A DNA stretch of 64,000 nucleotides from an uncultured Elusimicrobia bacterium (GCA_963702895.1 OY969767.1:1386506-1450505), one strand, 5' to 3'. Shown: positions 15,523 to 41,371, counted from the stretch's first letter. Made by a program: numbers and translations. Notes: generated by a model not told the origin, from the sequence alone.

Positions 15523-18500
15523 ATGATTCCCTTTATATTTCAGCGATTTGTCGCACTTCTCCTGGTCCCCTCCCTTCTCGTGGACCCGCTCACGGCGGCT
15601 GCCTTATCCAATGAAAGTCCGAGACCTGTTGACTTGGCTGCCGCACGCGGCGTCAATTTCCTCAACCAAGCCTTAATGGAGAGGCTGACAGGCGCTGAAT
15701 TCCATCCTGCCGCATCGCCAAAACATATCAGTGTCGTGAAGGATTTAATTCAAAGATTGAGGGAAGCCGCGAAAGGGAAAGTTCAGGGCGGGTCGTCAAC
15801 CGATCATCCGTCCTCTGGTAAGGTCGGCCATGGCGATACCGCAGGCTCCGTTAACGGAAATGGTATGTCGCGGCGTGATTTGCTGAAGCAATCTGCGCTG
15901 GCTTTGATGGTTCAGAACCTTCCGGCAGCGGCTCAAGCGGCTCTCGAGGCAGTCCCCATGAAGAGGCGCACGGCTTTTATCCAATTTCTCAGTGCCTTTC
16001 AACAAACACTTGAAGCCTTGCCGCGCGAGGTGAGAGACTACCATCAGGACCCCGACCTCCAGATGGGTGCCGGCAAATTCGGAGAGTTGGCAGACGCGAT
16101 CAGATCCTTGCGCGCTCAAGGAGCTTCGTCAGGGTTCAGCTCGGGCGCGTTGGGGGATTTGCAGGACATCTTTAAATTTTTGCAAGGGTCCGTTCGTCAA
16201 CAGGTGGCGTCTCCGGAGTGGCAGACCCGATTTGCTCCAGAGACGCTCAGGATGCTCCAACTCGCAGCCTCGTCACCGAATGACTTTGAGCTGGAATATC
16301 GTGTCGGCCTCTCCTGCCGCTGGCTGGAAAGCAACGGTATACAGGTAAGCCGTGAGGCAGCCCTGCAATCCGCGCGCGACGCTGTGGTGACGGGGCAAGA
16401 GCCACTTGGCGACTACCTTCAGAAGTGGCTTACGCCGCTCGTTTCAGAGCGTGTCGCGCCTACGGTCGCGCAGGAGGCGCAGCAATTGGCTCGCCTCGGC
16501 GCAAACCCAATTCAAACGGCGGATGCTTTTGCCGTGGAATTCATCCGTGAGTTCCAAAAACATCCTGGCAACGCTTTCTGGCCGAATCCGGATAAATTCC
16601 AGAAATATGTTCATGGCCAGGCGCGGCTCAAGGCGTTAGATGCGTTCCGCAGCAGCGTCAGCGAATTGGGGACGACCCTGGCGAAGGCTGGGGTCAGAAT
16701 CGACGGCGGATTTGTGTCAGCATACAGCAATGACGACTGGGGTTTTAACAAATGGATGAAGGATCCCGCTGCCTATATCCAAGAGATCCGAAGAATCACT
16801 TGGACTTCGCATGTCCGCGGAATGATGTTACAGCGGCTCGAAGAAAAACGGTCACGCTACAACCACGTCGCCTACCAGCGATTGAGAGACAGCATCTTTG
16901 ACATCCAGGACGAGGGCCTCGATCTGGACGCGGACCCCGACACGCTGTTCCACCAGCTCGAGTCCGCCATGGACGCGGAAGGAATCAACCGTCTCCCGGC
17001 AATTCCCGCGAACCGCGTGCCGCCTCCAATGTCCCAGGTTAAGGCACCCGGCGGCGTGCCCGCGGATCTGGATTCGCTCGTCAAGGACATTGCCGAGAGA
17101 GCGACAGCGACGGATGTCGAGGTCCGGGTCTTTATGGATGCGAAGGGGGCCGTCCGGTTTTTCGACATCCGCCCCTTGGATCCAAACGTGAGAGGCTTGC
17201 TGAGGACCCTGAGAGGCGCAGACCTCCCGTTCCTGAAGAAGAGGAACGGCCGCCCAGGGTGGCGTTACGGAATGCGCATCTCAAAGGGGACGCCTGCCTC
17301 AAAGATCAAATCGCGTCTCTTGTCGGGACTCGATTCTGGCCTCTGGCTGGACTTTTACACGGCGCCGCAGCATGACGGATCCCGCCTCCTCCCAGCTCAA
17401 GAGCCGCAAGCGAGCGAACCACTTTTAGCGCCCCGGATGAGCATTTTCAGCGGCCCCGAGTGGTTTGAACGGTGGGGCGCCCCCCTGGAAAGCGTGATGG
17501 TGGGCGCTCTGGCCAGCGGGATCCCGGCGCTTCTGCTTCTCCTTGTGGGCGTGGACTCAAGTGCTCCGACTGTCCTAAACGAGGCCGTCTTGTTGCCCGC
17601 GATGGCTTTGCTGATCTTGACCTTGGGCCAATGGTTGGCCGTTGACCTGTATAGCGGGCGGCATCCTTTGGATCGAAGGGAAGCATGGGACCGGTTGATC
17701 CGAAATGGCACATGGCTTCGGACTCCGCCGCAGAAGGTGCACGGTTGGGCCACGCGCATTGCCCTGGGCGCTGGCGCCGCGGCGCTGCTCCTGCAGGCCA
17801 CGCCGGTACTACCCCTCAGCCTGGCGTCCTACCTCGCCGTCGTCGCAGGGACCTACACGCTGACCCATCTGGCCGTTCATTTCCACCACAATCTCACCCA
17901 CGACAGCGACTTGCGCATGAGCCTTCGTCCGGCCGTACGACCTCCGCTCAATATCCCGATCATGGAATCCCTAAGAGAGCGATGGAAATCGATTTTGATC
18001 GCCGCGCTGTCTCCTCTTCCGTTTTATCTCATCCCCAGAATTATACAGAGACTCATGAAATGGCCGTTTCCTTCGGATCTGGAATTTATGATCACACTTC
18101 TGTTCGGTTTTGCGATCGGCATGGCGGGCATGATCATCTATGAAACAGCCGCGCATACGCTGAAATCTCAACGTGGGGCGGGGACCGAACCTTCGGGACC
18201 CTTGGTGACCCAGGGCTTATATCAATGGGTCCGACACCCTATTTACATGGGTTATTTCCTTGCCTACGGCGGAATCCTGTCGATGTTCAGCTCTCTGATT
18301 ACCACCGTGCCCTTATTTGTCGTTCTCCCTTCGGTGGTCTACTACTGTGTCGACAAAGCGGGCGCGGAAGAGACCCACTTGCATGCTCGGTTCGGCGATT
18401 TATATCGTGATTACGCGCGCCGCACCCCTTCCTTTTTCCCCTTCCGGCTGCCACGGCTCCGTCTGATGTCGGCAACGGCTCCCGCGGTCGACGGCCAACA

Positions 18501-21500
18501 CGAAACTCAAGACCCGGATTCCGAAATCGCCGTTGAGGAGAAGCCTCTCGTCATCATGGCCGAAGATGACCGCCTGCGCCGGCCGCGTATCTTTGACGAG
18601 ATCACAAAATTCCTTGGTGATGCCTATGCTTATCGCGTCTGCAACGATGGGCTTGAAGCGTGGAAAGTCATTGAGGACGCTATAGCATCCGGCCGCCCCA
18701 TTGCCCTTCTCGTCACCGACATCTCCATGCCCGGAATTTCGGGATCGGAATTGACGGCACGTCTGCTCGCGTTGCACCCATATGTCCCCATCATCATTCA
18801 TACCACCGAAGCTATGGACGACCTCAGACAAGCGTTCATGGACCCCCGCGTTCGAATCGTTGCCAAAGAAAATTACGCTGGCCTTCGAAGCGATATTGCG
18901 GAACTTCTGAAGTTGCCCCCCAACGCCGCGGTCGGTAGCGCGGATTCAGCTCCGATGCCGCAGGATGACCCATCACCCGCCAAAAAGACAACTGAACCGG
19001 CCGCGGGGACTCCTGCAACTCCTGAGCCATCGTCCACAGAACCACAAGCATGGTTGTCGTCGTTCCACGACCAAACCGAAGTCTGGGTGTTCTTCTTGAT
19101 CGGCGCCTCCCTGCTCGCGGCCCAAGGTCACATCTTCCCGGTGACCGCGGACTCCGAGACGATGCCTGTGGGTCTTCCCGTGTTTCTTGGATTGGGGCCC
19201 CCTTACAATTTCATTGTCGGTGCTTTTGATCGGGCCCTCCGCCGGATTTTTCCACCTCTGTTTTCGGGACCGGCTGAAGCGTTCACAAATCTGACGCCGG
19301 AATGGTTTCGAGCGTCCTACAGCGCTTGGCTGCAAACTAAGCGAGGCCGTGCGCTCACGACGGAGGAAGAAACTGAAATTGATCGGTTTGCGCGACTCTT
19401 GGCTCCCCCGCTGAATCCCATACGCGCAGAAAAACCGACCTGGAAGGACGAATGGAACTCTGCGTACCGGTACATTTTTTTAGGGCAACCTTTGGACCTC
19501 AAGTCAAAGCGCGCACCAGCGGAAAACGCGACCTCCCTTGGTGAATTGAACGACGCGCTGAAGATTATCGACGGCTACCCCCGCCTATGTTTAACGGCTG
19601 CCCCCTTGGCGTTTAAGATCCTTCAGGCGCGGGGCTTTTCCGTTCGAAGGGTGAGACGGACGAGATTCGAGGGGATCGTTGAACACGAGTATGTCGAAGT
19701 CGAAGTGGCGGGGCAGTGGCTCATTGTTGATTTGGTGGCGAGCCAATTCGGCATCTTGCAAACCTGGGGTGTTGTCGCGATCCCGAAAGAAATCGCGACA
19801 TCCGAGCCTGCCGTGCAGATCTACACGTACGGGGAAGCGGTCGTAAAGGAACAGGCCTTGCTGCCATCCAACCCTGAGACCCCAGGTGTTAGCGATAGCC
19901 GCGATCTCATCGGACTTGACGCGGTACGGTTTGTTCTATCGAATCAGATGGGACGGAGACTCCCCGAGACCACCATTCAAGAATTGACCAGCTACATCGA
20001 AGACTTCTTAAGGGCGCATCAGCTGGAATGGTTGCTGGACCGTGCCAGCATCACGGAGACACGACAGGGGGTGCGGGACAGCACCTCGGAGCTCCATGCA
20101 GGGCACCAAAACCAAAACAGCCTCGACTGGGTCGAACCCGCGCTGGCTGCGCGCGGCGCCTCCAGGGACACGATCTACCAGCTCAGGTACACTCTGCCTG
20201 GACGATCTCCTCGTAACACTCACGCCGTTTATGAAGCGGTGTCTGCTCTCCTGTTGACGCTCGTGCCGGATGACGTGCCAGTCTATCGCTGGATCGAGCC
20301 CGCCCATGCTGGCCTCCCGGGCGGCGACAGCATGCGAAGCTATTGGGCCGTTGCAACGGCCCAAAACAACAAAGACTTTGCCCATTCAGGCCGTATCCTT
20401 CTTAAAAGCTATTTTGGACGCCTCAGGCAGACAGGCGTCTTGGTTGACGATACGGGCGTTGACTTCCCAGCCATCTCTCTGATCCATGATCGAAGAAACG
20501 GCCTTGTTTCGCATGAGGTTGTAACTCCTCAACTCGTGCAACCTGGTCCCACCGCATCCACGCTTTCCTCTGCTTTCTCAATACTGGCGGTCTGGTTGCC
20601 CATCCTGATCGGCGCCTCCCTGCTCGCGGTCCAGATGGCATCCGGCCAGTTCTTCCCGGGAGCCGCACAACCAGAAGCCCTGCAGGCGGGCGGCGCGGCC
20701 ATGGGGCTGGGCTGGCTCTTCTTGCGTTTGATGGATCTGGTCTCTGCGCCTGAAGGACGCCACGTGGATCCAAGCCCGTCCAGGACGGCGAAAACCCAGG
20801 CGGCCGATCTGGGAATAGTCTTCAAGCCCCATCTGCTTGAACAATTGCGATATGCGCTCCAAGGCCCCCGTATCGAAGTTTTGAAACGGTTGTTGGAGTG
20901 GGCGGAAGGGTCCGAACTGCGAGGATTGTATCTTCGCACTACCCTGATGCAGCTTGTCGAGGACAATCCCTCATTCGGGGATCGCTTTCATCAAAAAACG
21001 CTTGCCTTGTTCCGGGAGCTGCGCTCGACACCGACACGTTCGACGGTGCAGTACCTGGCATCCCTATTCACGAAAGACAGTACCGCAGGGGTATGGCTAA
21101 AAAACAACCGGATATTCTTGTGGGACGCCACTCACACCTTCGAAGGTCGAATCAATGTGCGGTATTCCCTAAGCTCCGGCCAACGTCAAGCCTTGGTCGG
21201 CGATCTTCTTGTCCCGGAGTCCGGCTCCACCTTCCTGCTGGAATCGGTCCGGGAGGTCTTGAACGACAACCGTATTGGCGATGACGATTTGAACTATCCG
21301 CTGCAGGTAACAATGATTCAGGAAGGGCTTCGTCAAAAGGTTTACGCCGTGTTCGTCGAATTGAAGGACGGCCGAATGGCGCCGTTTGTCATATCGGTGC
21401 CCCAGAGCGTGAAGCAGAACAACATGGTCAGGAAGGAATTCGAATACTTGCGCCTCCACATAGGTGATCCGCATGCTTTGAGCGTCCTTCGATTAGGGTC

Positions 21501-22467
21501 TGTCAAGCTGGGCGGCACTAAATTCTATGTTTACAGCAGTCTTTTTCTTGACCGATATTCCGAAGTGGTCTACCACCACCGGAGGGCTGGTCTCTTTCAA
21601 AGTAGCCCGGGAGCGTTTCTAGCAACATCCTCGCAGCCACCCCAAACGGTGAGGCTGACCCCCTACGACGCAGCGCGAGTTCTTTCCAAAATTGTCGCCG
21701 TCCTGGTTCATTTTTATGATCCGGAAAAACGCACCATGCTGGGCGGAGTTGATGTGCCTGCCGGAGATTTCAACTTCCCGGATTCCGCGTTCCTGGATTT
21801 CGAGCCGCGAACAGCCACCGTCATTGACACAGACCAACCGGTGAAACTGATCGCCTGGCGGTCCATCGCCCATGGGGTCGACCCAGCAGCATTTATTGAT
21901 TACGTCCTGAGCCTGCGCTATTTGAATTCCAATCCCAGGCTCATTGATTTTGACAGCAACCTCAAAATCGGTGTCCTTGCAGGATTGCGAAGCGGGCTGA
22001 TTGCGCGGTACGGATACGAGGAAGGCCAGCGAATACTAACACGCTGGTTCCAGGCGTATGCTGATGCCGTTGATCAGGACCGGTTTATAGAAAATGGATT
22101 TTTCCAACTTGATGCGCTGCACGGATTCCTGGAGCAGCTCACGGCTCCCAACTCCGGGAAAGCCGGCCCTCGACCCGAGCCGGCGGTTCGCTCTTCCCGC
22201 GCCGGCAAGCTTATCGGCATCCTCTTGATCGCTGGTGCCGCGGCTGCCGCACGTCACGCTGTCCCGGGAATCATCGACATCGGCGCGGGTTCCGATTTGA
22301 TCGGCCGGATTGCCGGGACAGACCTGTTCGCTGGCTCGGCAGTTACTCAGGCCGGCGGCTTGGGCGTGGCGTTGGGCTTGCTCATGGCTTATGGCCTGGG
22401 CGCGCTGAGCCGCCGCTTGGCAAAGAACCATCCCGCTCGTCAACGGGCCTTGGGGCGGGCGGCATGA
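15523..22467 (+). CDS. Giant mosaic protein 1 (~2314 aa): signal-like leader, ICMT-like methyltransferase, CheY-like receiver, transglutaminase-like domain, four hydrophobic-hairpin modules
   Basis: Uninterrupted ORF. Start taken at MIPFIFQRFVALLLVPSLLVDPLTAAA, with GGAG 9 nt upstream. ICMT/PEMT motif …YQWVRHPIYMGYF…EE..L…FGDLYRDY (≈18196-18440). Receiver D…TDISMPGISG…K (≈18541-18915). C/H/D transglutaminase-like core (≈19571-19760). C-terminus …TQAGGLGVALGLLMAYGLGALSRRLAKNHPARQRALGRAA. Confidence 0.8.
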   Translation: MIPFIFQRFVALLLVPSLLVDPLTAAALSNESPRPVDLAAARGVNFLNQALMERLTGAEFHPAASPKHISVVKDLIQRLREAAKGKVQGGSSTDHPSSGKVGHGDTAGSVNGNGMSRRDLLKQSALALMVQNLPAAAQAALEAVPMKRRTAFIQFLSAFQQTLEALPREVRDYHQDPDLQMGAGKFGELADAIRSLRAQGASSGFSSGALGDLQDIFKFLQGSVRQQVASPEWQTRFAPETLRMLQLAASSPNDFELEYRVGLSCRWLESNGIQVSREAALQSARDAVVTGQEPLGDYLQKWLTPLVSERVAPTVAQEAQQLARLGANPIQTADAFAVEFIREFQKHPGNAFWPNPDKFQKYVHGQARLKALDAFRSSVSELGTTLAKAGVRIDGGFVSAYSNDDWGFNKWMKDPAAYIQEIRRITWTSHVRGMMLQRLEEKRSRYNHVAYQRLRDSIFDIQDEGLDLDADPDTLFHQLESAMDAEGINRLPAIPANRVPPPMSQVKAPGGVPADLDSLVKDIAERATATDVEVRVFMDAKGAVRFFDIRPLDPNVRGLLRTLRGADLPFLKKRNGRPGWRYGMRISKGTPASKIKSRLLSGLDSGLWLDFYTAPQHDGSRLLPAQEPQASEPLLAPRMSIFSGPEWFERWGAPLESVMVGALASGIPALLLLLVGVDSSAPTVLNEAVLLPAMALLILTLGQWLAVDLYSGRHPLDRREAWDRLIRNGTWLRTPPQKVHGWATRIALGAGAAALLLQATPVLPLSLASYLAVVAGTYTLTHLAVHFHHNLTHDSDLRMSLRPAVRPPLNIPIMESLRERWKSILIAALSPLPFYLIPRIIQRLMKWPFPSDLEFMITLLFGFAIGMAGMIIYETAAHTLKSQRGAGTEPSGPLVTQGLYQWVRHPIYMGYFLAYGGILSMFSSLITTVPLFVVLPSVVYYCVDKAGAEETHLHARFGDLYRDYARRTPSFFPFRLPRLRLMSATAPAVDGQHETQDPDSEIAVEEKPLVIMAEDDRLRRPRIFDEITKFLGDAYAYRVCNDGLEAWKVIEDAIASGRPIALLVTDISMPGISGSELTARLLALHPYVPIIIHTTEAMDDLRQAFMDPRVRIVAKENYAGLRSDIAELLKLPPNAAVGSADSAPMPQDDPSPAKKTTEPAAGTPATPEPSSTEPQAWLSSFHDQTEVWVFFLIGASLLAAQGHIFPVTADSETMPVGLPVFLGLGPPYNFIVGAFDRALRRIFPPLFSGPAEAFTNLTPEWFRASYSAWLQTKRGRALTTEEETEIDRFARLLAPPLNPIRAEKPTWKDEWNSAYRYIFLGQPLDLKSKRAPAENATSLGELNDALKIIDGYPRLCLTAAPLAFKILQARGFSVRRVRRTRFEGIVEHEYVEVEVAGQWLIVDLVASQFGILQTWGVVAIPKEIATSEPAVQIYTYGEAVVKEQALLPSNPETPGVSDSRDLIGLDAVRFVLSNQMGRRLPETTIQELTSYIEDFLRAHQLEWLLDRASITETRQGVRDSTSELHAGHQNQNSLDWVEPALAARGASRDTIYQLRYTLPGRSPRNTHAVYEAVSALLLTLVPDDVPVYRWIEPAHAGLPGGDSMRSYWAVATAQNNKDFAHSGRILLKSYFGRLRQTGVLVDDTGVDFPAISLIHDRRNGLVSHEVVTPQLVQPGPTASTLSSAFSILAVWLPILIGASLLAVQMASGQFFPGAAQPEALQAGGAAMGLGWLFLRLMDLVSAPEGRHVDPSPSRTAKTQAADLGIVFKPHLLEQLRYALQGPRIEVLKRLLEWAEGSELRGLYLRTTLMQLVEDNPSFGDRFHQKTLALFRELRSTPTRSTVQYLASLFTKDSTAGVWLKNNRIFLWDATHTFEGRINVRYSLSSGQRQALVGDLLVPESGSTFLLESVREVLNDNRIGDDDLNYPLQVTMIQEGLRQKVYAVFVELKDGRMAPFVISVPQSVKQNNMVRKEFEYLRLHIGDPHALSVLRLGSVKLGGTKFYVYSSLFLDRYSEVVYHHRRAGLFQSSPGAFLATSSQPPQTVRLTPYDAARVLSKIVAVLVHFYDPEKRTMLGGVDVPAGDFNFPDSAFLDFEPRTATVIDTDQPVKLIAWRSIAHGVDPAAFIDYVLSLRYLNSNPRLIDFDSNLKIGVLAGLRSGLIARYGYEEGQRILTRWFQAYADAVDQDRFIENGFFQLDALHGFLEQLTAPNSGKAGPRPEPAVRSSRAGKLIGILLIAGAAAAARHAVPGIIDIGAGSDLIGRIAGTDLFAGSAVTQAGGLGVALGLLMAYGLGALSRRLAKNHPARQRALGRAA

Positions 22468-22518
22468 TCCAACTCCTTGCCCGGACCCTTCGCAGAGATG
22501 CAGAAAATCCAGGTTTTT

Positions 22519-30009: not shown

Positions 30010-30237
30010 TTGGAGGTGTCTATGTTTGATCGAATCACGTTTGACGCAAACATTATGGGCGGACGAGCCTGCATTCGCGGAATGCGGATTCCTGTTTCGG
30101 TGATCGTCGGGCAGGTGGCGCATGGAGCGACAGCCCGAGAAATCCTGAAAGGCTATCCTGACCTCAAAGAAGAAGACATCAAGCAGGCCATGGAATATGC
30201 CGCCTGGCTGACTCAGGAAGAAGTGCACACGGCCTGA
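30010..30237 (+). CDS. DUF433 antitoxin-like protein (second copy)
   Basis: 75-aa ORF, …GGRACIRGMRIPVSVIVGQVAHGATAREILKGYPDLKEEDIKQAMEYAAW…. Paralogous to 9305-9535. Confidence 0.7.
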   Translation: MEVSMFDRITFDANIMGGRACIRGMRIPVSVIVGQVAHGATAREILKGYPDLKEEDIKQAMEYAAWLTQEEVHTA

Positions 30238-30246
30238 GGACGAACC

Positions 30247-30606
30247 ATGCGGTTTCTGGCTGATATGTGCGTCTCCCTGGAAGTCGTCGAGTGGCTCCGA
30301 CAGCAACAGCATGACACCAAGCATCTCCGAGAGGAAAACCTTCACAGGCTGCCGAATGGAGACATCTTCAAGAAGGCGGCCGCAGAAAATAGGATCCTCC
30401 TCACCTTTGATTTGGACTTCGGAGAAATCGTAGCGCTGGCGAAAGGAAACCAAACGGGCGTTATTTTGTTCAGGCTCTACGACACGCGGCCCGTGCATGT
30501 GATCGAACGCCTAAAGGTCCTCCTAGCTGATGCTCCTCCCGCCCTCAACAACAGCATCATTACTGTTGAAGAAACCCGCTACCGAATCCGCCATTTCCCC
30601 ACTTGA
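30247..30606 (+). CDS. DUF5615 (PIN-like) toxin (second copy)
   Basis: 119-aa ORF starting 10 nt after the DUF433 gene. Paralogous to 8980-9318. Confidence 0.7.
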   Translation: MRFLADMCVSLEVVEWLRQQQHDTKHLREENLHRLPNGDIFKKAAAENRILLTFDLDFGEIVALAKGNQTGVILFRLYDTRPVHVIERLKVLLADAPPALNNSIITVEETRYRIRHFPT

Positions 30607-30676
30607 CATCGCACCCCATAGCCCAAGCCAGTCGCATCGCCTGAACAGCGCTATTCCAGACTATTCCGCAGTCTAT

Positions 30677-30702: not shown

Positions 30703-30850
30703 GTGTTCCTCGCGGTCAATAAACGGCCCAACCAAAACCATGGGCCCTTTGGCCCGAAATTAATGGCCGTTCGCACCATTTATCCCCTTCTCAAAACGCT
30801 TTAGAATCAAGTGATGGCTCGAACGCGCGCCCGCGCGGGTTCGAGCGCCT

Positions 30851-33800: not shown

Positions 33801-36800
33801 GAAGTAAAGCCGGAACCTTGCCATTTGAACTTTATCCCGGTGCCGATGCAGGGGCTCGGAAGCCTGCATCCCCTCGCCCGGCCCGGCCGGCCACCCAGCT
33901 GCCCGAAGCGGTCCCGGTCTCTGACCCCTCGGTGTCGCTCGACCTCGCCCCGGCTGCCGCGGTTTCCCTGGCACCGGCTGCCGCGACCGCCGTCTCGCCG
34001 CCTAGCCCTATCGCCGATTCGCCGCCTCCATCCACCGATGGCTCGCCGACCCGCCGGCCCGCCGACCCGCCGACTCGCCGCGTCGCCGCATTGGACGTCG
34101 ACCCCGCCGCGCCGGCGACAAGCCCGTTCCGGCCGTGGCGGTGGATCGCCGCCGGCATCGCAGTCGCCGCGGTCGTTGCCGCCCTGCATTTCGGCCCGAC
34201 AACGTTCAGACAATTCCGGGACGGGTCTTCAACGCCGCGCCCGTCGTCGTCCGCGAGTCAGGACTACGTCTATGAGCCCGGGCCGGCGTCCGAAACCACA
34301 CACGACCGCGTCCGTACCATGATGGGACCGTACTACGGCATGGATCTTCAGGGACATCGGGCGGAATCCGGAGAACCCCGGGCCGATGCGGGAGCTCCCT
34401 CGCAGCCCCCCGCGCTGAACCCATTGGAGAACATTGCAGACATACAGCTGAGCGGTCATGCCGCGAATGAAATGCTGATGATGGCATTCGCGAACACGAT
34501 GGAAGACGGCGGCGTTTTATCCCACGCGGGACGAATTGACTTCGTGCCCTCGGATAAACTCACGAAAGAACGCACCAAAGTCACGCTGATTTTGCCCGCA
34601 TTGCGCCAGGGCCAGGCGATGCGCATGCCCATTCCCCTCAACCGCCGGGTCGATCCCCTGAGCATCTCGGACCCACGCCTCTGGGTTGACGCCCAGGGCT
34701 GGCTCACGGCCCGGGAGGATACCCCCCCGCTCACCGTGACCTTTGATTGGATCACGACCTTGGAAAACGGCTCCTTCCGGGCGAACTTCCCCGTGACACC
34801 CTGGATGGAGCGGGAATTCCAAGATATTCCGCCGGAGGTTCGAAGGGACCTTGACCGCGCTCTAGGGCTCGATGAACATGGACGCGCGAGCGTCCTGGCC
34901 GGCGTGGTTGAGAAATACCTCGGCTACAACCAGCAACAGAGAGTTCAACTTCGTCGGGGGACGTGGAATCGTTTCATTGGAGAAGTTCTTGAGACGGAAG
35001 GGCGGTTTAAGGGCGATTGCGACGTCTTGGCCACCGTCGGTTGGATCTGGGCCAGGTATCTTGGACTTGATGCTGTCATGGCAGCCGGCCGGAACAACAG
35101 GGGCGGGGGCTCACGGTCCGGAACGAACATGTCCCACGCCGTCATGGTCATCCGGATCGGCGGCAAGTGGCTCGAATTCGACCCTTCCAAATGGGCGCCG
35201 CCCGTCGCCAGTGAAAGTCTTGCGCCTGACCAGCCCTCCGCCGACGGGAAACGGCTGGATGCCGGTCCCATGCCGACACCGCTCAAGCCCTCACCCCAGT
35301 TTGTCGCTACCTTTATCCCGAACCCCGAGCTTTTCCCGCCACCTCGAACGGGACCACCCGCCAGTGCAAAGCCTACCGCGGAGCGACCCGTTCCGCCCGG
35401 CGTGGGTCAGGAATCACCGAAGACCGAACCCGGCGCCAAAGTGGGGCCTGCCGAGAAGCCCGCGAGCGCCAAGAAACCCGCGAGCACCGAAACCCCCGCC
35501 AAGCGGCCCAGCACCTACCGCGTTCAGCCCGGCCAGAGTTTCAACGATATCGCGCGCTTGATATTCACGGATGAGAAATATCCCTACCCGGCGGCCTTGG
35601 ATCTGATCGTGGACAACATCAACCACACGATCGGCGGCGACCCCGACCGCCTGATGGCAGGAGTCGACCTCATCGTACGGCCTACGAGCGCGTATTCTAG
35701 TCCTGTAGCAGGGATGGATTGGGAATGGGGCCTCCATCGAAAATATGGACGGGCCTGGTATGAGCGGCGCCATGCCTTGCTGCAGCAGGCGCTGACCCGG
35801 GAAAGTCAACGCCCGTCACCCTATACTTCGGAATACCAATCGGAACTGCGGGCGCGCGCGGGCGCCCGGTGGCGCTCGATCGAATTCGACATCCTTGCCA
35901 TCAACGACATCCTGAATTGGATCGAACAACGCTTCGGGGTCAGATTCCAACGAGTTGACCTTATGCAGGCGATGGCTCAAACCATGGAGCGCAGTCAAAT
36001 CATCTTGAAGCTGACGTCAACCGGCCGTTCAAAATCCGGAACGACCGCCGCCCCGAAGCAGACGGCCGACGGGGAATCGGCGAAACGGAGAAGCGGTGAA
36101 CCGGCGGACTTGCCTCTGGGCCATTCCACGAAAACAAGTCCGGACGACCGACTCATCGCTCCGAAGAGCATCACTCCCCTCATGGCAGGCCTGCTCCAGG
36201 CTCCGCTGTGGTGGTGGGGGCTGAGCCACCTGCTGGGCGGGCCGCAGACACCGCTCCTGACCCAGGCCGCCTTCCTGGCCCTTCCGGCCATCCCGCTCGG
36301 CGCCGCCCTGGCCCTGTTCGCGGCGGGGGTCGTGGTGGCGGGGATGGCGGTTTTGGGGAGAAAGGTTCTGAAGCAAACCAGACCCGAGCGCATTGAAATA
36401 CAACTGACCCCAATGGACAGACCCTATCAATTGGATCTCGTCAAGTCAGGTGGCAGCCATTCCCGGGGAGATTTGATTCGTCTCGATTTGGAGGAAATGC
36501 GGCTCGAAGCGCACAAGACCGGCGTACCCGGCCGTATGGCTGTTCGTCGAGTCTACCTCGAAGAGCTTGGACACGCTGTTGACGCGCGCCGCTTCGTCAG
36601 AGAAGGGCGGCCTCTTAGCGGCTTTGTAAGACCCAACTCACCTTTACAGACGTATTGGGACCACCACAATCCCAAAGACCCTGAGCATGACATGAAGGAG
36701 CTAGTGGCGGGTCTCAGGCACATCCTGTTTGCGCAAACCCCCTTTGAGGCGGAAAGAGCCCTCATAAAATTATCGCAGGTAGCCAATGATCCGACCGACA

Positions 36801-39800
36801 GCCACTATTGGGGCGGACGCTTCGCCCTTGAGAGGATTCTCCAACGCATCGACGCAGGGCGAGGCGAGAGGGTGGATGATCTGACAAACTATTTGCCACG
36901 CCTCATCTATGGGTCAGGGGCGTTCCCGGACCTGCCTACGCTGCGTTTACTGGCGAAAGAATTATGTATCGAAAACCTGCGGGACTATCCGCCTGACGGA
37001 GACGGTCTCCCTGCGCTGAGCGCGGATGGGTCCCGGATCGACGTTCCGGATGAGACCCAACAAGCTTTGGCAACGGTGTGGCGCGCATTCGAGACTTACA
37101 CGGGAAAATCATTGGCCGATGACGCGGTCCCCACGCCGGAACATGTCCGACATTCACAAGCGGCGAGGAGCGGGCTGCCTGGGTTTGACCGAACGGGCCA
37201 TTCTATTCATGACCCTGGTCTTGCGCAAGGGAGAAAGATGGTTGGTATGGTCATCGCCGGCCTGCTCCAGGCTCCGCTGTGGTGGTGGGGGCTGAGCCAC
37301 CTGCTGGGCGGGCCGCAGACACCGCTCCTGACCCAGGCCGCGTTCCTGACGATGCCGGCCATCCCGCTCGGCGACGCCCTGATCAGCTTCGCCGTGGGCG
37401 CGGCGTGGATCGTGGTGGCGGGGATGGCGGTTTTCGGGTCAGGGGCGCCCGCTCCGGGGCAGGAAGGGGTTTCCGGTCCTGTCTCGCCGGGACCGTCTTC
37501 CAATACCGCGGCCGCCGTCCGGAGGTCCTTCGAAGCGCAGGCTCGAGTACTGGCCGGTATCCCCACCGTGACCGAATTTGAAGCTAATTTCCCAGGCACG
37601 ATACGTCGCGTCGATCTTGGACCAGGCTATTCGAATTCGTTACGAGCCGGAGAAGTTCCTAAGATCGATTTCACGCGTCGAATACAGGGAAGAGTCTACC
37701 AGCCACCACCGGCGTCGGAAAACGATTGGCCGAAATGGCTGGACCTGTACGTCGAAAAAGACGCCCAGGCGCTTGTCGTGAGGCTGATGAGAGCGGGCTT
37801 TCGCCCCGATTATTCCAACGCTTACGGAGATGGCCTGAAAGGAGTGTGGTGGACCCGAACCAGCCACCATACTGACACCGTCGGTTCCAACGCAACAAAT
37901 ACGTTCTTTACTCCATTGACAGAGGAGGATTATCTCGCGCCGGACCAAGGCGAACATCCGGGCGAGACTCCTAACGACCCAGGAGCGCCTGTTACACCAA
38001 CAGAACCTCCCTTGAATTGGATCGAAAAGAATGACGCAGCCCTCGAGCAACTGAGTCCCATCGACCGTCAGCTTGTCGATGCCATTCTCCAAGGCGCCTT
38101 ACACGGCGATGCTGAACTGCTTGCCCAGTACCCAGAAAAAGTTTATATCGATCCTATTGAAGTTGGACGCTCGGATGAAGGCCGAACAATCTTTCTCAAG
38201 CTTGAAACGAGCATCCTAGTAGAAGGCCGCTACCTCACACACCTGCGATTCAAAGGCGCTCGCCCCCATAAAGGGCGCTACGGGCAGGGGAACCAAGTCG
38301 CCTATCTCGGACGTCGGGGCCATGTCGAGCGGCCTGTAACGGTCGATCAGGAAGGGCGATTGACGGTTTTTGCCGGTCAACTTGACCCCATGGGAGGTAT
38401 GCGCCGTATCGGGGCTGCCAACGAATACGCTTTGATGCAAAGCGAAAACAGCCAAGGCGCCTATCGCACGGACGTGCCGATCGGCTGGGGCATCTTCCCT
38501 GGATTTGCATTTGAAAACGAACCTCTGGGCTGGGCGATCGCAGGGATGGAAGGGCCCGACGTTCGAATAAACGGGCGTCGTCAGAATCAGCTGATCCTCC
38601 GGTCGCGCACGAACGACCCTTATGGGATGATTGAACTGTCTCAGGAACAGTCGCAACACCTCGCCAGGCTCATCGGTGAGAGCATCTGCGCTTATCATCA
38701 AAAAGGCCGTTATCACCGCTACCCCCATTTTGGAAATATCGGCGTGGCCTACGATACTGTCACCCGTTCCATCCGTTCTGTTGTTCTGCGGGATTTGGAG
38801 ACCTCCGTCCGGAAAGACAGCCTGAGCGGATCTCCGAAAGAAATTGAGAACCAAATCATTGCTTGGCGTTTCCGGGATGTGATTCGGTTGATCTATCAGT
38901 TCTCCTTCAGACCACGGCCCAATGACCCGCTCATCGGCGCCCTCTTGCGCGGATACTTCCCGGAAGGGACTCTAAGAAATGATGATCTTCAGGCCCTGCT
39001 TGTGACCATTTGCCGTCCCAACTTTCTCGATGATTACGCATCCTTATTCTACGACGATGAGACGCAAGATCTCTCGAATTTGATCGACACTCTCGACATC
39101 CAATCTCATCCTAATTATCAGCATCTTTGGAACGCGATCAGACAATCCATGGCGAGCCAGCCCGCCACTCCTGAAGGGAATGACGGTTCGGCGACTCAAG
39201 AACATCCGGGTCGCATTGATCCGACGGGCTTGCGCCGCGTGCTCCCGGCAATCGCCCTCCTGGCCGCTCTTCCCTGGACCTACGGCTTCACTTCGATCAG
39301 CGGCTCTCCCGGATCCGGCGCCGCGATCCCGCTCGGCGCCGCCCTGGCCCTGTTCGCGGCGGGGATCGCGGTCCTGATCTCAGGGAATTCCCCTCGAAAA
39401 CGCAAAATACTAACTAAGGCGGCGAGCCATAAGGCAGGAAGGCAAAAGCCGGTGAGTGGCGATGCACCGGGTCCTTCGCGTCACGTTTACCCTGACCCCG
39501 TCGTCATGGAGAAAAGTCGTTACGATCTTCCAAAGAGTTTGAAGTCCTGGTCTTGGCTCGCTCGCAACAAGGACCAACGTCAATGGCTGCGGGACGTATT
39601 CCTGCCGAGACTCTTGGCGACTCAAAACCTCCGCGCTCCAGGACAAATCAAGGTCGTAGACCTTGGCGTAAGCACCGGAGAAGTCCTCGCCCGAACTTAC
39701 TATGAGATTTTCCAGCATCTCATAGAAAACACCTTGAAGGGAACATGGAAGGCCAGGATGGTAGGTGTTGATAGGGATGCGACCGTGCTGGCGGAAGCCC

Positions 39801-41371
39801 GTCTTCGGATAAGCGGCAAGCACCCTTTCAATGATATCTCGATCTCTGGCCCTACCATTGAAAAACCAACCCCCTACTCGGCGGCCGTGGTGGATTTCTT
39901 AAACAGCGACCCGGCGGCCTTTCAATCCAGCGTGCAGCTGGAGCAGCTCGACATCACCGACCATGATTCGCTGGACCCCGTTTTAGACGGTGTCGACCTG
40001 ATCATGGTCAACCACGTCATGGAATATTTGCACCCGGCGGACGTAAAGCCCTTCTTGCAACACCTGTACCAGAAGGCCCCGCAAGCCTGGTTGGCCATGG
40101 AAAATGAATACAGTACTCCCGCCGAAGCTCACCACCGCCAATGGATACCTTATCAGCCGACGCATTTGCCGGGCTTTCGCCCAACGGATTCAGGAAGCAG
40201 CTCACTTCCCGGCGAGAACACACCCCGGTCAGCGGCTGTGGTCGGCATCTTCGCCAGCTGGCTCGCGCTCAGTCAGGCCGCATCCTCCGCTCACCTCCCC
40301 AGTAGGTTGGAATCCCTGCTTTCATTCTTCTATTCGATATCGCCGCTCTTTCCCTGGCTCATGCTCGCCGCGACAGCGGTCTGGCTGGCGGGCACCTTTG
40401 TCGCGCTGAGAACTCTTTGGAGGCACCCCTCTCGGGTGCCGAGCATAAGACAGGGCGGTACGGCTTCGCCCAGCCCGGCCAGAGCGCTCACTTTTCGGTA
40501 CTATTCCGAACTGACCCCCGGACAAAAAGCTGATGTAACGCTAGCTTCATTAATCAGAAGGTTAGGAGCAAGACGTGAGGTGCACGTCTACGATACGAAA
40601 CCATTGGGCAGCCGGTGGGGCCAATTGCCGATCCTCACCCGGTGGAGCCTGCGCCGTTTCACGCGTAACCTGACCCCTGATCCGACAACACTCAGACTCG
40701 ATGCTCTCGTCGCCTATCGTGGAGACATTCCCATGGGTGTTTACGCGTTCATCGATCTCGGTCCAGATCGTCAAATTGTTATGGACAACGGCATCTACAT
40801 GGACGCCGACCAGAGGCAGAACGGATACGGTGGAAAACTCACGAAGGAACTCCTCAGCAGGCTGGCAGAGCGCGGGTACAGAATGTTCGTTTTGGGACCG
40901 CCTTTGGGAACGGCTGAAGCGGAGGGGCTCCGTCGGTGGCTGAGCGCTGCCCCAGGCGTTGAAACGCGGGGCAGAACAACCATCGTCCATCTCGCTAACT
41001 ACCGAACAAACACCGCCAATTCCCAAGCCGCCGGCAAACCCAAAGGCAAAACAAACGATTCCGCCCCGGAAGCGGAGCCCGCTGACGCGCCGCGCGGCAT
41101 AAAGCTTCGCAGTTCCGCGCTGGCCGGCGCTCTCGCCAGCGCGATCGCGCTCAGCCAGGCGCCGTTTGCCCCCCAACTGCCGGATTGGCTTTCTCCCCTC
41201 TTCAGCACGGCGAGTTCGCTGGCGCCGCTCGTTCCCTGGGTGGGGATGGCCGCCGTGATCGGTTGGCTTTTACGGCCAGCTCTGACTCGCATGCTGTTGA
41301 AGGCCCTTCCCCGCCTGCGCGGCAGTCGTTCATCCCGAGCCATCCATCATCACCTTCGAGCCGCGGCCTGA
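30851..41371 (+). CDS. Giant mosaic protein 3 (3506 aa): leader, NagB/6-phosphogluconolactonase-like domain, 2x SAM-MTase, transglutaminase-like, LysM-like, GNAT-like, many hairpin modules
   Basis: Uninterrupted ORF. Leader MPKSLIRIVALILVPCMLLDPSSAFA. NagB-like PTGSTP…NMDEYY…GHVAFNE (≈31384-31760). MTase LELGAGLGAI (≈33038-33400). TGase-like GDCDVL…SHAVMVI…EFDPS (≈35012-35190). LysM-like YRVQPGQSFNDIARLIF (≈35516-35570). MTase VVDLGVSTGE (≈39640-40090). GNAT-like …QRQNGYGGKLTKELL… (≈40690-40900). Confidence 0.8.
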   Translation: MPKSLIRIVALILVPCMLLDPSSAFAELARPAAWRAPFPAGVSLASPQATHAALRLDSFPFGIQALVPPSWLSRPISWIQRASELARQASRNRFQVRWTSLAGSPFSFPVLGTDERPIRPVQFSVSQNEIGGGQDGTGQIVTTPSGSRFQVFDTPQTMAAAQAGEIAEIIHANDAAGRITILILPTGSTPIPVYHELVRLYQARQLSFRNVHTFNMDEYYPGPQAPCAWAQHPQSYRRFMDELLFSKVDIPRANIHFLNGQAADPAAEAARYEQEFRDLAPNGADLELGGVGSRGHVAFNEAVVHLTDDFLQRLTSKNREALGLSNDFALEVTAGHELAALAMILQGHWNFREGETFVRWLRARIKTTGRITEESLQKLAERLRRQRVTIGWNPDSPDAKDIQDFVNQASARFGFPIELADLRKLDDSQTHLRELALSTVVDNSVHFAEPADIPTQALTMGLGTLRHSQRTRILASTPNKIPPLEQVAAGPVSEQVPVTDVLRHPDTRFLVTQAAIPPTVRTALARTSGLVLNSQPETRNPKAESGTPAARDTKLYTHPIAVMALAWMASSHFYSWDPAGTGLLLLLTIAPLMAWQGRIFRGKSGMNTFRRLDALLRHLRGLSYARCRELLATGLDRFVPPRRKHRQREFPAIALPAAAPGNPFQLRPPTAVELAFPSRYESAVHAKFVGNDPYDDRTRAIVQAHATAAYVDLMREIFKRTGGTLRGVSFLELGAGLGAIVDVLRTRAGVDAQGIEVRREFVQFARDHGVPLIQGTLLEVPLELAGKTFQITFSRQLLDAIETTDRATEGPMPSQVTHEEELRVLATIAALTAPGGWSIHQTYSSNPIPFTDEELTQAGFQIVSMNPRRTMMVLRRLSDPPPSSPVRRPEAAEETIKPEGKKGPSLYTHPIALMALAWMASSHFYGWDPAGILPLLLLLVPLMAWGPGRYRQWMTSLSGRGPRYKAKQWERKLDEDLRRLRGKGSKAGTLPFELYPGADAGARKPASPRPARPATQLPEAVPVSDPSVSLDLAPAAAVSLAPAAATAVSPPSPIADSPPPSTDGSPTRRPADPPTRRVAALDVDPAAPATSPFRPWRWIAAGIAVAAVVAALHFGPTTFRQFRDGSSTPRPSSSASQDYVYEPGPASETTHDRVRTMMGPYYGMDLQGHRAESGEPRADAGAPSQPPALNPLENIADIQLSGHAANEMLMMAFANTMEDGGVLSHAGRIDFVPSDKLTKERTKVTLILPALRQGQAMRMPIPLNRRVDPLSISDPRLWVDAQGWLTAREDTPPLTVTFDWITTLENGSFRANFPVTPWMEREFQDIPPEVRRDLDRALGLDEHGRASVLAGVVEKYLGYNQQQRVQLRRGTWNRFIGEVLETEGRFKGDCDVLATVGWIWARYLGLDAVMAAGRNNRGGGSRSGTNMSHAVMVIRIGGKWLEFDPSKWAPPVASESLAPDQPSADGKRLDAGPMPTPLKPSPQFVATFIPNPELFPPPRTGPPASAKPTAERPVPPGVGQESPKTEPGAKVGPAEKPASAKKPASTETPAKRPSTYRVQPGQSFNDIARLIFTDEKYPYPAALDLIVDNINHTIGGDPDRLMAGVDLIVRPTSAYSSPVAGMDWEWGLHRKYGRAWYERRHALLQQALTRESQRPSPYTSEYQSELRARAGARWRSIEFDILAINDILNWIEQRFGVRFQRVDLMQAMAQTMERSQIILKLTSTGRSKSGTTAAPKQTADGESAKRRSGEPADLPLGHSTKTSPDDRLIAPKSITPLMAGLLQAPLWWWGLSHLLGGPQTPLLTQAAFLALPAIPLGAALALFAAGVVVAGMAVLGRKVLKQTRPERIEIQLTPMDRPYQLDLVKSGGSHSRGDLIRLDLEEMRLEAHKTGVPGRMAVRRVYLEELGHAVDARRFVREGRPLSGFVRPNSPLQTYWDHHNPKDPEHDMKELVAGLRHILFAQTPFEAERALIKLSQVANDPTDSHYWGGRFALERILQRIDAGRGERVDDLTNYLPRLIYGSGAFPDLPTLRLLAKELCIENLRDYPPDGDGLPALSADGSRIDVPDETQQALATVWRAFETYTGKSLADDAVPTPEHVRHSQAARSGLPGFDRTGHSIHDPGLAQGRKMVGMVIAGLLQAPLWWWGLSHLLGGPQTPLLTQAAFLTMPAIPLGDALISFAVGAAWIVVAGMAVFGSGAPAPGQEGVSGPVSPGPSSNTAAAVRRSFEAQARVLAGIPTVTEFEANFPGTIRRVDLGPGYSNSLRAGEVPKIDFTRRIQGRVYQPPPASENDWPKWLDLYVEKDAQALVVRLMRAGFRPDYSNAYGDGLKGVWWTRTSHHTDTVGSNATNTFFTPLTEEDYLAPDQGEHPGETPNDPGAPVTPTEPPLNWIEKNDAALEQLSPIDRQLVDAILQGALHGDAELLAQYPEKVYIDPIEVGRSDEGRTIFLKLETSILVEGRYLTHLRFKGARPHKGRYGQGNQVAYLGRRGHVERPVTVDQEGRLTVFAGQLDPMGGMRRIGAANEYALMQSENSQGAYRTDVPIGWGIFPGFAFENEPLGWAIAGMEGPDVRINGRRQNQLILRSRTNDPYGMIELSQEQSQHLARLIGESICAYHQKGRYHRYPHFGNIGVAYDTVTRSIRSVVLRDLETSVRKDSLSGSPKEIENQIIAWRFRDVIRLIYQFSFRPRPNDPLIGALLRGYFPEGTLRNDDLQALLVTICRPNFLDDYASLFYDDETQDLSNLIDTLDIQSHPNYQHLWNAIRQSMASQPATPEGNDGSATQEHPGRIDPTGLRRVLPAIALLAALPWTYGFTSISGSPGSGAAIPLGAALALFAAGIAVLISGNSPRKRKILTKAASHKAGRQKPVSGDAPGPSRHVYPDPVVMEKSRYDLPKSLKSWSWLARNKDQRQWLRDVFLPRLLATQNLRAPGQIKVVDLGVSTGEVLARTYYEIFQHLIENTLKGTWKARMVGVDRDATVLAEARLRISGKHPFNDISISGPTIEKPTPYSAAVVDFLNSDPAAFQSSVQLEQLDITDHDSLDPVLDGVDLIMVNHVMEYLHPADVKPFLQHLYQKAPQAWLAMENEYSTPAEAHHRQWIPYQPTHLPGFRPTDSGSSSLPGENTPRSAAVVGIFASWLALSQAASSAHLPSRLESLLSFFYSISPLFPWLMLAATAVWLAGTFVALRTLWRHPSRVPSIRQGGTASPSPARALTFRYYSELTPGQKADVTLASLIRRLGARREVHVYDTKPLGSRWGQLPILTRWSLRRFTRNLTPDPTTLRLDALVAYRGDIPMGVYAFIDLGPDRQIVMDNGIYMDADQRQNGYGGKLTKELLSRLAERGYRMFVLGPPLGTAEAEGLRRWLSAAPGVETRGRTTIVHLANYRTNTANSQAAGKPKGKTNDSAPEAEPADAPRGIKLRSSALAGALASAIALSQAPFAPQLPDWLSPLFSTASSLAPLVPWVGMAAVIGWLLRPALTRMLLKALPRLRGSRSSRAIHHHLRAAA

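Follow-up and report, generated by a model that had tools for sequence, protein, structure and literature searches.

Three tandem genes for large mosaic proteins with reiterated hydrophobic hairpins in an accessory insertion of an Elusimicrobiota chromosome

A chromosomal stretch of 64,000 nucleotides (nt; the window) from an uncultured Elusimicrobia bacterium (GCA_963702895.1, OY969767.1:1386506-1450505) was analysed, and three giant genes on its + strand, G1, G2 and G3, are described here. Positions are counted from the first nucleotide of the window. The three long same-strand open reading frames (ORFs) reported in the first-pass annotation, which had been made from the sequence alone, were confirmed, as was the statement that only a gene pair separates them: the G1-G2 gap measures 51 nt, and between G2 and G3 there are only a DUF433 and a DUF5615 gene. 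In each protein, globular domains that are unrelated to one another are strung together by short hydrophobic helix-loop-helix modules, called hairpins below. The three genes, with lengths in amino acids (aa), are as follows.

15523-22467, + strand: G1, 2314 aa; leader, orphan domain, multi-pass ICMT-like domain and receiver, followed by three segments with hairpins between them
22519-29921, + strand: G2, 2467 aa with C9 in place of the assembled C8 run at 22608-22615
30851-41371, + strand: G3, 3506 aa

The G1 ORF comprises 2343 aa when read from its first start codon (15436) and 2314 aa from the Met at 15523. The latter is most likely the start, because it begins the conserved leader described below, is preceded by an AAGGAG box and is the start used in public records. 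As assembled, the long ORF of G2 runs from 22641 to 29921 (2426 aa), its first 41 codons being lost through the run of eight C residues; the repaired gene begins at 22519 with MHRTIRRSAAVLLIVCLVVDPATAAAF. An independent short-read contig from Logan (L002), matching 9092 nt of the window with 0 mismatches and one 1-nt indel, covers G1 and the first ~650 codons of G2 and contains C9 where the window has C8. A sequencing error and a phase-variable tract are both possible explanations of this difference. The G1 stop codon (TGA) and the corrected G2 start (22465-22521) share a frame, with one stop and 17 sense codons between them. Stop-codon read-through joining G1 to G2 was considered and set aside, since a common frame has a 1-in-3 chance and nothing else supports it.

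Residual homopolymer indel errors of the long-read assembly are indicated by rpoD (42857-44607, - strand), which is split into two ORFs by a frameshift at the G/C run 43469-43474 and encodes 583 aa when repaired. Such errors break ORFs and do not create them, so that frames open over 7-10.5 kb are good evidence for real genes. Coding periodicity (GC1 > GC2 < GC3, the G+C contents of the three codon positions) was kept in each 900-nt interval of G1, G2 and G3. The G3 sequence comes from a single contig of 2,724,539 bp, the independent assembly covering only G1 and the start of G2. On this sequence evidence G1, G2 and G3 are judged to be genuine, intact genes.

An all-against-all BLAST comparison of the three proteins and of their 18 inter-hairpin segments gave significant similarity in the hydrophobic modules only; the leader was recognized by eye. 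With similarity confined to hairpins and leader, G1-G3 are not paralogues in the usual sense, contrary to the earlier description: the signals and joints are shared and the cargo is unrelated. Tandem protein repeats were searched for in G1-G3 and none were found. The shared elements, together with one single transmembrane (TM) helix, are listed here.

15523-15606, + strand: G1 N-terminal leader (MIPFIFQRFVALLLVPSLLVDPLTAAAL), from motif search and alignment
19075-19221, + strand: G1 hairpin 1; DNA 86% identical to part of G1 hairpin 2 over 44 nt
20569-20739, + strand: G1 hairpin 2; 40% identical to G2 hairpin 1
22207-22464, + strand: G1 C-terminal hairpin, basic tail, ...GRAA-COOH
24603-24761, + strand: G2 hairpin 1
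25482-25676, + strand: G2 hairpin 2
28716-28889, + strand: G2 hairpin 3, type A (LQAPLW..GLSH)
29670-29918, + strand: G2 C-terminal hairpin 4, type A, basic tail, ...FRQAA-COOH; 45% identical to G3 hairpin 3
32525-32641, + strand: G3 hairpin 1, type B (YTHPIA.MALAWMASSHFY); 84-nt DNA repeat, 95% identical to G3 hairpin 2
33575-33685, + strand: G3 hairpin 2, type B
34145-34201, + strand: G3 single predicted TM helix, after a low-complexity stretch rich in Pro
36176-36364, + strand: G3 hairpin 3, type A; 171-nt DNA repeat, 85% identical to G3 hairpin 4
37241-37435, + strand: G3 hairpin 4, type A
39242-39382, + strand: G3 hairpin 5, second helix of type A; 50-nt repeat, 94% identical to G3 hairpin 3
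40226-40411, + strand: G3 hairpin 6, type C
41114-41368, + strand: G3 C-terminal hairpin 7, type C, basic tail, ...HLRAAA-COOH

The N-terminal module spans ~70 aa and consists of one to three basic residues, a hydrophobic core of 11-13 residues (ALILVP[CS]LL) and then D-P-x-T-A-A-A, with F-x-x-Q-A-L following 20-45 residues later. The conserved leader claimed earlier is visible in G1 and G3 as assembled, and in G2 only after the C9 repair. A lipoprotein signal was rejected as the Cys is not invariant, and a Tat signal as the twin arginine is not consistent. The module also occurs on the homologous proteins P0013, P0016, P0027 and P0084 and on a 1060-aa protein of a related metagenome-assembled genome (MAG), Elusimicrobia bacterium RIFCSPLOWO2_01_FULL_59_12 (locus L005, 16815-19997). 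In this last protein it reads MSKTFIRVVALILVPCLGADPLTASG...YADQAL; the rest of the sequence is unrelated and does not end in [AS]A, and the gene adjoins luxC in a region syntenic to the left flank of the locus described here.

The helix-loop-helix module had been described as one and the same throughout. Its repetition was borne out, with 14 copies in G1-G3, but the copies fall into at least four sequence types. G2 hairpin 4 belongs to DNA repeat family D2, and hairpin DNA of G2 and G3 is ~70% identical. Since hairpin DNA within these genes can be highly similar while the neighbouring sequence is unrelated, recent duplication or gene conversion of the joints is indicated.

All three proteins terminate, as had been noted, in hydrophobic helices and a basic tail, and in each case the last residues include Ala-Ala (GRAA, RQAA and RAAA in G1, G2 and G3). 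Two of the ~30 other proteins encoded in the window end in this way, and a proteome-wide habit of Ala-Ala endings was rejected on this count. A cause at the DNA level was likewise rejected, because the stop codons and the codons preceding them differ. The rarity of the ending elsewhere in the window and the differing stop codons point to a protein-level feature.

Domains were searched for with Pfam on whole proteins (E <= 0.01), on tiles (E <= 1) and on short tiles (E <= 10), and curated cut-offs were used for calls. More than 80% of the residues of G1-G3 have no Pfam match, which exceeds the share of over 60% without a recognisable family estimated earlier; where G1, G2 and the greater part of G3 are called orphan, this refers only to Pfam, NCBIfam and PDB sequence searches. 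The following domains were recognized.

17491-18435, + strand: G1 multi-pass membrane region with an ICMT/PEMT-like methyltransferase core (Pfam ICMT, PF04140, 27.6 bits, cut-off 24)
18553-18843, + strand: G1 response-regulator receiver (Pfam Response_reg, PF00072, 32.6 bits, cut-off 30.2; PDB receiver matches)
27681-27983, + strand: G2 class I S-adenosylmethionine (SAM)-dependent methyltransferase (Pfam Methyltransf_11, 25.1 bits, cut-off 21.2)
31292-32389, + strand: G3 NagB-like domain, glucosamine-6-phosphate deaminase fold (PDB 7lqn, E = 4e-33)
32993-33388, + strand: G3 plausible SAM-methyltransferase 1, at or below threshold (MetW 21.2 bits, cut-off 21; Methyltransf_23/25 below cut-off)
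34961-35185, + strand: G3 plausible transglutaminase-like (Cys-His-Asp) core (Pfam Transglut_core, PF01841, 22.6 bits, E = 1.3e-4, cut-off 23)
36371-37225, + strand: G3 domain S5 (aa 1841-2125), a conserved family with the motif LEELGHAxD
38012-39187, + strand: G3 protein-kinase-like domain with a WaaP/Bud32/RIO-like fold (aa 2388-2779), ~100 homologues
39563-40153, + strand: G3 plausible SAM-methyltransferase 2, below threshold, CheR/Methyltransf_12-like
40703-40891, + strand: G3 plausible GNAT-like segment, below threshold (Acetyltransf_1 18.8 bits, cut-off 20.7)

The proposed ICMT-like methyltransferase and CheY-type receiver, both located in G1, passed their cut-offs. The former region (aa 686-964) has six or seven hydrophobic helices, and its core matched PDB entries 5v7p (E = 7e-5) and 4a2n; the NCBIfam models for isoprenylcysteine methyltransferase and LmtA scored below their cut-offs. 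The receiver retains the equivalents of CheY D12/D13, D57, T87 and K109 (EDD, LLVTDISMPG, IIIHTT and IVAKE). Of the three SAM-methyltransferases announced, the one in G2 stands above its cut-off and the two in G3 lie at or below theirs. The G3 transglutaminase-like core has a readable triad (GDCDV...SHAVMV...EFDPS) and a score just under the cut-off; its supposed counterpart in G1 gave no match even on a 111-aa tile at E <= 10. A GNAT domain is plausible as the weak G3 segment, and none was matched in G2, even with short tiles at E <= 10. LysM (PF01476), also proposed, was detected neither in G3 aa 1118-1770 at E <= 1 nor on a 76-aa tile at E <= 10.

The NagB-like assignment was upheld at the level of the fold. 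The catalytic set of Escherichia coli NagB comprises Asp72, Asp141, His143 and Glu148. Equivalents of Asp72, His143 and Glu148 are present in G3, with FNMDEY and GH..FNE kept; Arg stands at the Asp141 position, and an insertion of ~120 aa lies right behind GH..FNE. The score against TIGR00502 (E = 5e-46, 157 bits) is below the equivalog cut-off of 236.9, and the domain, a member of the fold and superfamily, is probably not an orthologous NagB. In a metagenome locus (L084), query residues 127-515 were matched in one piece at 29% identity, and this sequence may share the insertion.

No Pfam family covers the kinase-like domain. An AlphaFold model built from 38 sequences had a mean predicted local distance difference test score (pLDDT) of 87.6 and a predicted template-modelling score of 0.89, and a Foldseek search with it returned WaaP (6dfl, E = 2e-6) first, followed by Bud32, PRPK and Rio2, with probability 1.0. 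In the family, K89, E146 and D269 are invariant and H237, N250 and D297 are conserved in at least 90% of the sequences; the beta-3 Lys, alpha-C Glu, catalytic-loop Asn and metal-binding Asp of the kinase fold are thus conserved. The G3 domain reads His-Arg-Tyr where kinases usually have His-Arg-Asp. According to the model, G3 aa 2388-2779 is a bilobal kinase-like fold of the WaaP/Bud32/RIO branch; kinase activity is putative. Further copies in G1 or G2 were sought with the family hidden Markov model (HMM) at --max and none were found. Homologues of the S5 domain occur in P0010, P0012, P0016, P0084, P0107 and P0075; its AlphaFold model, of fair quality (pLDDT 78), had no PDB fold match, the best Foldseek E value being 0.3.

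SecA_DEAD, Peptidase_C39 and S8 domains gave no Pfam match in whole proteins (E <= 0.01) or tiles (E <= 1). RHS, RTX/MARTX, NRPS/PKS, adhesin-repeat and anti-phage defence families were not matched in Pfam, NCBIfam or PADLOC, in agreement with the first-pass view that these mosaic proteins resemble none of the first four kinds. In PHROGs only families of unknown function were hit, over the ICMT-like and receiver regions of G1, and an origin from a phage or a defence system was rejected in view of these PADLOC and PHROGs results.

Topology was assessed from hydropathy and charge. The hydropathy profiles show the leader and a further 7-16 predicted helices per protein. The loops of the 14 hairpins contain two Lys or Arg in 191 residues (0.010 per residue), and the 15-residue flanks contain 75 in 420 (0.15 per residue before and 0.20 after the hairpin; protein-wide 0.10-0.12). 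By the positive-inside rule, basic flanks lie on the cytoplasmic side. The charge-poor loops would therefore be outside, and the basic flanks and soluble domains on the cytoplasmic side. The loops around the first two helix pairs of the G1 multi-pass region show, as read from the sequence, the same loop-out, basic-in pattern, which places the end of the first soluble domain inside. In G2 a second, clearly hydrophobic helix and a cluster rich in Arg come after the leader, which gives an N-terminal hairpin. The intact receiver and the SAM-, ATP- and acetyl-CoA-dependent domains fit a cytoplasmic location, and the active site of an ICMT-like domain uses cytosolic SAM.

Relatives were sought by an exhaustive HMMER search with one 1075-aa stretch (G3 aa 1771-2845) against 1.84 billion representatives, which gave 107 matches. 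Besides stand-alone proteins of ~350-450 aa, over 30 mosaic proteins of 2-6.6 kaa (thousand amino acids) carry the kinase-like domain, and many of the larger ones have a canonical signal peptide and few or no TM segments. G3 aa 2388-2779 matched P0008 (MBF0384853.1, Candidatus Omnitrophica, 2985 aa) with E = 3.8e-34, a homology of one domain only. Of the 105 proteins retrieved with this kinase-carrying G3 segment, 32 have Ala-Ala or Ser-Ala as their last two residues, where composition would predict 1.25%; the binomial p is ~4e-35, which is not a clean probability because the sequences are related. The ending was found in 18 of the 37 proteins of at least 1000 aa and in 14 of the 68 shorter ones. 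Three of the retrieved proteins, P0013 (1071 aa), P0107 (552 aa) and P0051 (781 aa), consist of cargo, a C-terminal hairpin, a basic tail and [AS]A, and appear from their sequences to represent one unit of what G1-G3 reiterate. Other giants carry separators of their own: RSELR occurs six to eight times in P0009, P0014, P0043 and P0053, which end in R-S-A or R-A-A, AARLA occurs seven times in P0032, and further motifs were read in P0005, P0008 and P0004. D-x-A-[IM]-L and APRPAA are separators in giants other than G1-G3. RSELR-type separators and internal [AS]A sites were looked for in G1-G3 and none were found; there the separators are the hairpins.

A scan of genome contigs with G1 found no relative among 185,579 species representatives, and a scan of metagenome contigs with G3 found ordinary NagB genes only and no close relative. 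Homologue searches with G1 aa 1-686, with G1 aa 1263-2343 (2343-aa numbering) and with a profile of the N-terminal module returned nothing useful; these negatives are weak, because the query's own protein (P0001, a cluster representative) was not returned either.

The host organism is a member of the Elusimicrobiota, the best matches of the repaired RpoD being MAGs of this phylum at 81-90% identity (e.g. RIFCSPLOWO2_01_FULL_59_12). The flanking chromosomal genes are murE, ftsI, rsmH (mraW), RNase P RNA, tRNA-Val and tRNA-Met, and further a luxC/luxE/aminotransferase cluster, rpoD, dnaG, TerC, rsmE, dnaJ/dnaK, hrcA, an ABC transporter and lepA. Among MAGs with sequence at this place, the three closest (L003, L004 and L005) have aminotransferase-luxE-luxC 0-10 nt after rpoD, and in L004 CT398-like, rsmH (mraW), ftsI and murE genes come beyond luxC. 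No gene of the intervening island gave a tblastn match in any of 80 Elusimicrobiota rpoD loci. By this comparison of sequences the locus of the trio is assigned as a strain-specific accessory insertion of 28.9 kb, and its accessory nature, proposed earlier on other grounds, was thereby supported. It contains an IS256-family element, G1, G2, the DUF433/DUF5615 pair, G3, a hemerythrin gene and a cupin gene. The remaining features are as follows.

13954-42856: accessory insertion, ~28.9 kb, with the aminotransferase gene on one side and rpoD on the other
14021-15406, + strand: IS256-family insertion sequence; transposase ORF 14103-15350 (Pfam Transposase_mut, E = 8.6e-73)
30010-30606, + strand: DUF433 (30010-30237) and DUF5615 (30247-30606) gene pair (Pfam, E = 9e-24 and 1.5e-22)
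41870-42765, - strand: hemerythrin (41870-42334) and cupin (42331-42765) genes (Pfam); right-hand cargo, absent from the syntenic loci

The IS256 element with its target duplication was found as announced: a 10-bp direct repeat, TGTGTCCTGG, brackets it at 14011-14020 and 15408-15417. The marks of this family, a Transposase_mut DDE transposase, terminal inverted repeats and a target duplication (~8-9 bp in the family), are all present, the inverted repeats being imperfect. The DUF433/DUF5615 pair is, in line with comparative-genomic predictions, a putative toxin-antitoxin module. The G+C content of the island is like that of the flanks and its GC3 slightly lower (0.64-0.65 versus 0.67-0.76 in the flanking housekeeping genes). 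The tRNA genes (8390 and 9980) and the low-GC stretch (8-10 kb), which had been taken as island marks, lie 4-6 kb outside it, past genes that are syntenic in relatives. Repeats of att type were not found at the island borders with a 12-mer seed, and promoter and terminator scans gave no signal above chance.

Three further observations were made in the window. The cluster of luxC (acyl-CoA reductase), luxE (acyl-protein synthetase) and a class III aminotransferase gene (10446-13953) comes directly after rpoD in L003-L005; among related Elusimicrobiota MAGs this arrangement is conserved, and for a housekeeping sigma factor gene it is unusual. At 41631-41753, in the intergenic region where G3 and the hemerythrin gene converge with their 3' ends, a 21-nt unit (GAAAGAATGAGACGGTTGCCC-like) is repeated in tandem in about six degenerate copies. 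The class A RNase P RNA (5742-6383, - strand, 123 bits) matches over 642 nt a model of 367 positions and must therefore hold unusually large insertions.

Contrary to what had been supposed, the architecture has a precedent. Proteins of at least 10 kaa from the neighbouring phylum Omnitrophota have been described with signal peptides, TM helices at constant density and many enzyme domains, explicitly including PF08241 methyltransferases, GNAT domains and receivers (bioRxiv 10.1101/2023.11.21.568195; bioRxiv 10.64898/2026.06.07.730766). The classes named there are class 1 (Nielsen & Lui 2026, bioRxiv 10.64898/2026.06.07.730766) and the Archaeovorin-type giants (West-Roberts et al. 2023, bioRxiv 10.1101/2023.11.21.568195). 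The candidate roles put forward are extracellular effectors, secreted enzymes, inner-membrane-anchored cytoplasmic enzymes and mobile passenger genes, and both papers leave the choice undecided. Giant genes are common in Elusimicrobia too (PMC12057145).

G1-G3 share with the Omnitrophota giants an N-terminus resembling a signal peptide, predicted TM helices at intervals of a few hundred residues and tiled enzymes of cytoplasmic type (methyltransferase, GNAT, receiver, kinases, sugar-phosphate enzymes), none of which dominates, with much of the sequence unannotated. Both are sequence-unique proteins open to the same competing functional readings, and the kinase-like domain of G3 is homologous to a domain of a Candidatus Omnitrophica protein. 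They differ in size (2314, 2467 and 3506 aa compared with a threshold of 10 kaa and up to 147 kaa), in host phylum, in lacking SecA_DEAD, C39 or S8 peptidase, glycosyltransferase and hydrolase domains, in lacking flanking type II/IV secretion, pilus or PilZ genes, and in lying as three tandem genes in a defined insertion, with TM elements recognizable as hairpin cassettes whose repetition extends to identity in the DNA. In the sections and by the term searches of these preprints that were consulted, neither the N-terminal module nor the [AS]A C-terminus came up. On sequence grounds G1-G3 are best called a short, tandem Elusimicrobiota variant of the known Omnitrophota-type multi-enzyme proteins. 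As this class is itself functionally uncharacterised, the refuting condition named earlier, a clear match to a described giant-protein family of known function, does not apply.

With MARTX and polymorphic toxins, G1-G3 have in common a large chain with several unrelated enzyme domains, mosaic cassette-like evolution and an accessory locus. What sets them apart is the absence of RTX or RHS repeats, of a cysteine protease (CPD) or any different release domain, of dedicated genes for secretion or immunity and of detected toxin families, together with a hairpin charge that points to the producer's own membrane. In hairpin-anchored proteins, such as the chlamydial Inc proteins with their bilobed hydrophobic domain, reticulon- and caveolin-type hairpins and tail-anchored proteins, two short helices and a loop hold a soluble domain at the membrane face, which is the likeness to G1-G3. 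G1-G3 differ in reiterating the hairpin up to seven times per chain between different enzymes; no sequence similarity to those families is known, nor is a type III secretion context at this locus. Individual domains belong to, or fold like, NagB, ICMT/LmtA, the WaaP/Bud32/RIO kinases, class I SAM-methyltransferases and CheY receivers, but unlike those single-domain enzymes they are embedded in giant chains.

It is quite possible, and this is the interpretation we prefer, that G1-G3 are hairpin-tethered multi-enzyme arrays at the membrane's cytoplasmic face, possibly with one periplasmic segment in G3. They would be 'beads-on-a-string' proteins resident in the inner membrane, whose hairpins would each enter or cross the cytoplasmic membrane from the inner side, the loop pointing out and the basic flanks staying in. 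The majority of the catalytic domains would then lie on the cytoplasmic face, near SAM, ATP, acetyl-CoA, sugar phosphates and a partner histidine kinase; G3 aa 1118-1770, with the transglutaminase-like core, may face the periplasm. The kinds of domain (ICMT/LmtA-like, WaaP-like, NagB-like, methyltransferases and GNAT) recall the modification of envelopes and amino sugars, i.e. methylation of lipid or protein carboxyl or phosphate groups, WaaP-like phosphorylation and GlcN-6-P chemistry, and because of them the likeliest job would be the variable modification of envelope precursors at the membrane. The building unit may be cargo domain, hairpin, basic tail and [Ala/Ser]-Ala-COOH, occurring also as stand-alone proteins of 0.5-1.1 kaa, and the giants appear to be such units fused in series. 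The hairpin DNA repeats (85-95% identity over 84-171 nt) could serve as joints for recombination and cassette exchange.

Several observations weigh against this cytoplasmic-face arrangement and the role suggested for it. The n, h and c regions of the leader (basic start, core, DP-x-T-A-A-A with small residues at -3/-1) are signal-peptide-like, and judged by sequence the leader looks like a cleavable Sec signal peptide. If it drives export, the NagB and methyltransferase domains of G3 and the first domain of G1 would be outside, which would either contradict the charge pattern or turn the hairpins into surface anchors. Several helices have only 14-16 residues and are too short for a canonical TM span, and the larger relatives that look secreted carry the same kinase-like domain. 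An envelope-modifying role would draw on weak family resemblances, no envelope-biosynthesis genes flank the island, and the catalogue of activities is incomplete, most residues being orphan.

A rather unlikely alternative, though the main rival, is that G1-G3 are exported surface or multi-effector proteins, the leader being a true Sec signal and the hairpins anchoring the enzymes outside or entering the membrane of a prey, host or competitor cell. The kinase, methyltransferases, GNAT and NagB domains would find their cofactors in the target cell, as for MARTX-type or Inc-like hairpin effectors. Such a role would suit the signal-peptide-like leader, whose A-x-A-like site is conserved in eight family members, the canonical signal peptides and scarce TM segments of the long kinase-domain relatives, the short helices, which could pass SecYEG, the accessory, unique and fast-diversifying locus, and the literature, where it is the favoured reading of Omnitrophota giants with signal peptides and TM helices. 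The positive-inside pattern, however, points the opposite way at all 14 hairpins, and an intact receiver and an ICMT-like membrane enzyme can be understood only if they work in the membrane and cytoplasm of the producing cell itself. Genes for secretion, pili or injection were not found within the 64-kb stretch, searches of the proteins turned up neither toxin, RHS or RTX domains nor a self-cleaving protease, and there are no adjacent small genes of immunity type except the generic DUF433/DUF5615 pair.

It is improbable that the chains are polyproteins, cut near the hairpins into tail-anchored enzymes (cargo, hairpin and basic tail) in either topology, which would provide a stoichiometric and variable enzyme set with [Ala/Ser]-Ala as the mark of a shared processing or quality-control machinery. 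The stand-alone unit proteins P0013, P0107 and P0051 with their [AS]A ends would be as expected, as would the basic tails after internal hairpins, which resemble true C-termini ('KQTR' occurs both after G3 hairpin 3 and at the G2 terminus), and the related giants with RSELR separators and R-S-A or R-A-A ends; a transglutaminase-like (papain-fold) domain could act as the protease, and processing has been proposed for Omnitrophota giants. Internal hairpins of G1-G3, however, are not followed by a conserved [AS]A or RSELR-like motif, no autoprocessing protease (C39, S8 or CPD) was recognized, and hairpin conservation is explained equally well by anchoring and gene conversion. More remote still is an artefact or decay, with chimeras made by the hairpin DNA repeats or with decaying passenger genes of a mobile element. 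Homopolymer errors do frameshift the start of G2 as well as rpoD, G3 contains internal repeats of 84-171 nt, GC3 is slightly lowered and the IS256 element adjoins G1; yet indels would have broken the 7-10.5-kb frames, which stay open and keep their coding periodicity over the whole length, the independent assembly also contains G1 and the start of G2, catalytic and phospho-acceptor residues are conserved, and domains have conserved homologues elsewhere.

Beyond this locus, a dedicated sorting and processing system common to the Elusimicrobiota/Omnitrophota mosaic giants is conceivable, though unlikely. The N-terminal module (leader ... F-x-x-Q-A-L) and an obligatory [Ala/Ser]-Ala-COOH end would define it, and the short reiterated separators (the hairpins in G1-G3) would act both as recombination joints for the shuffling of enzyme cassettes and as cleavage or anchoring signals; were it true, one gene would deliver a programmable set of membrane-tethered enzymes. 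The giants of Omnitrophota and relatives (10-147 kaa), whose export, cutting and role pose an open problem, are so large that experiments are almost impossible. G1-G3 follow the same recipe at 2.3-3.5 kaa, with delimited units and a defined insertion site, and offer a tractable entry. The three candidate signals, i.e. the N-terminal module, the reiterated hairpin or separator and [AS]A-COOH, appear to be undescribed. If the [AS]A ends in about one third of the proteins and the giant-specific separators hold on whole genomes, they would give a first grip on the construction and sorting of such proteins. If the cytoplasmic-face reading of G1-G3 is true, they would be membrane-organised enzyme arrays and not surface weapons, and the interpretation of the class would change.

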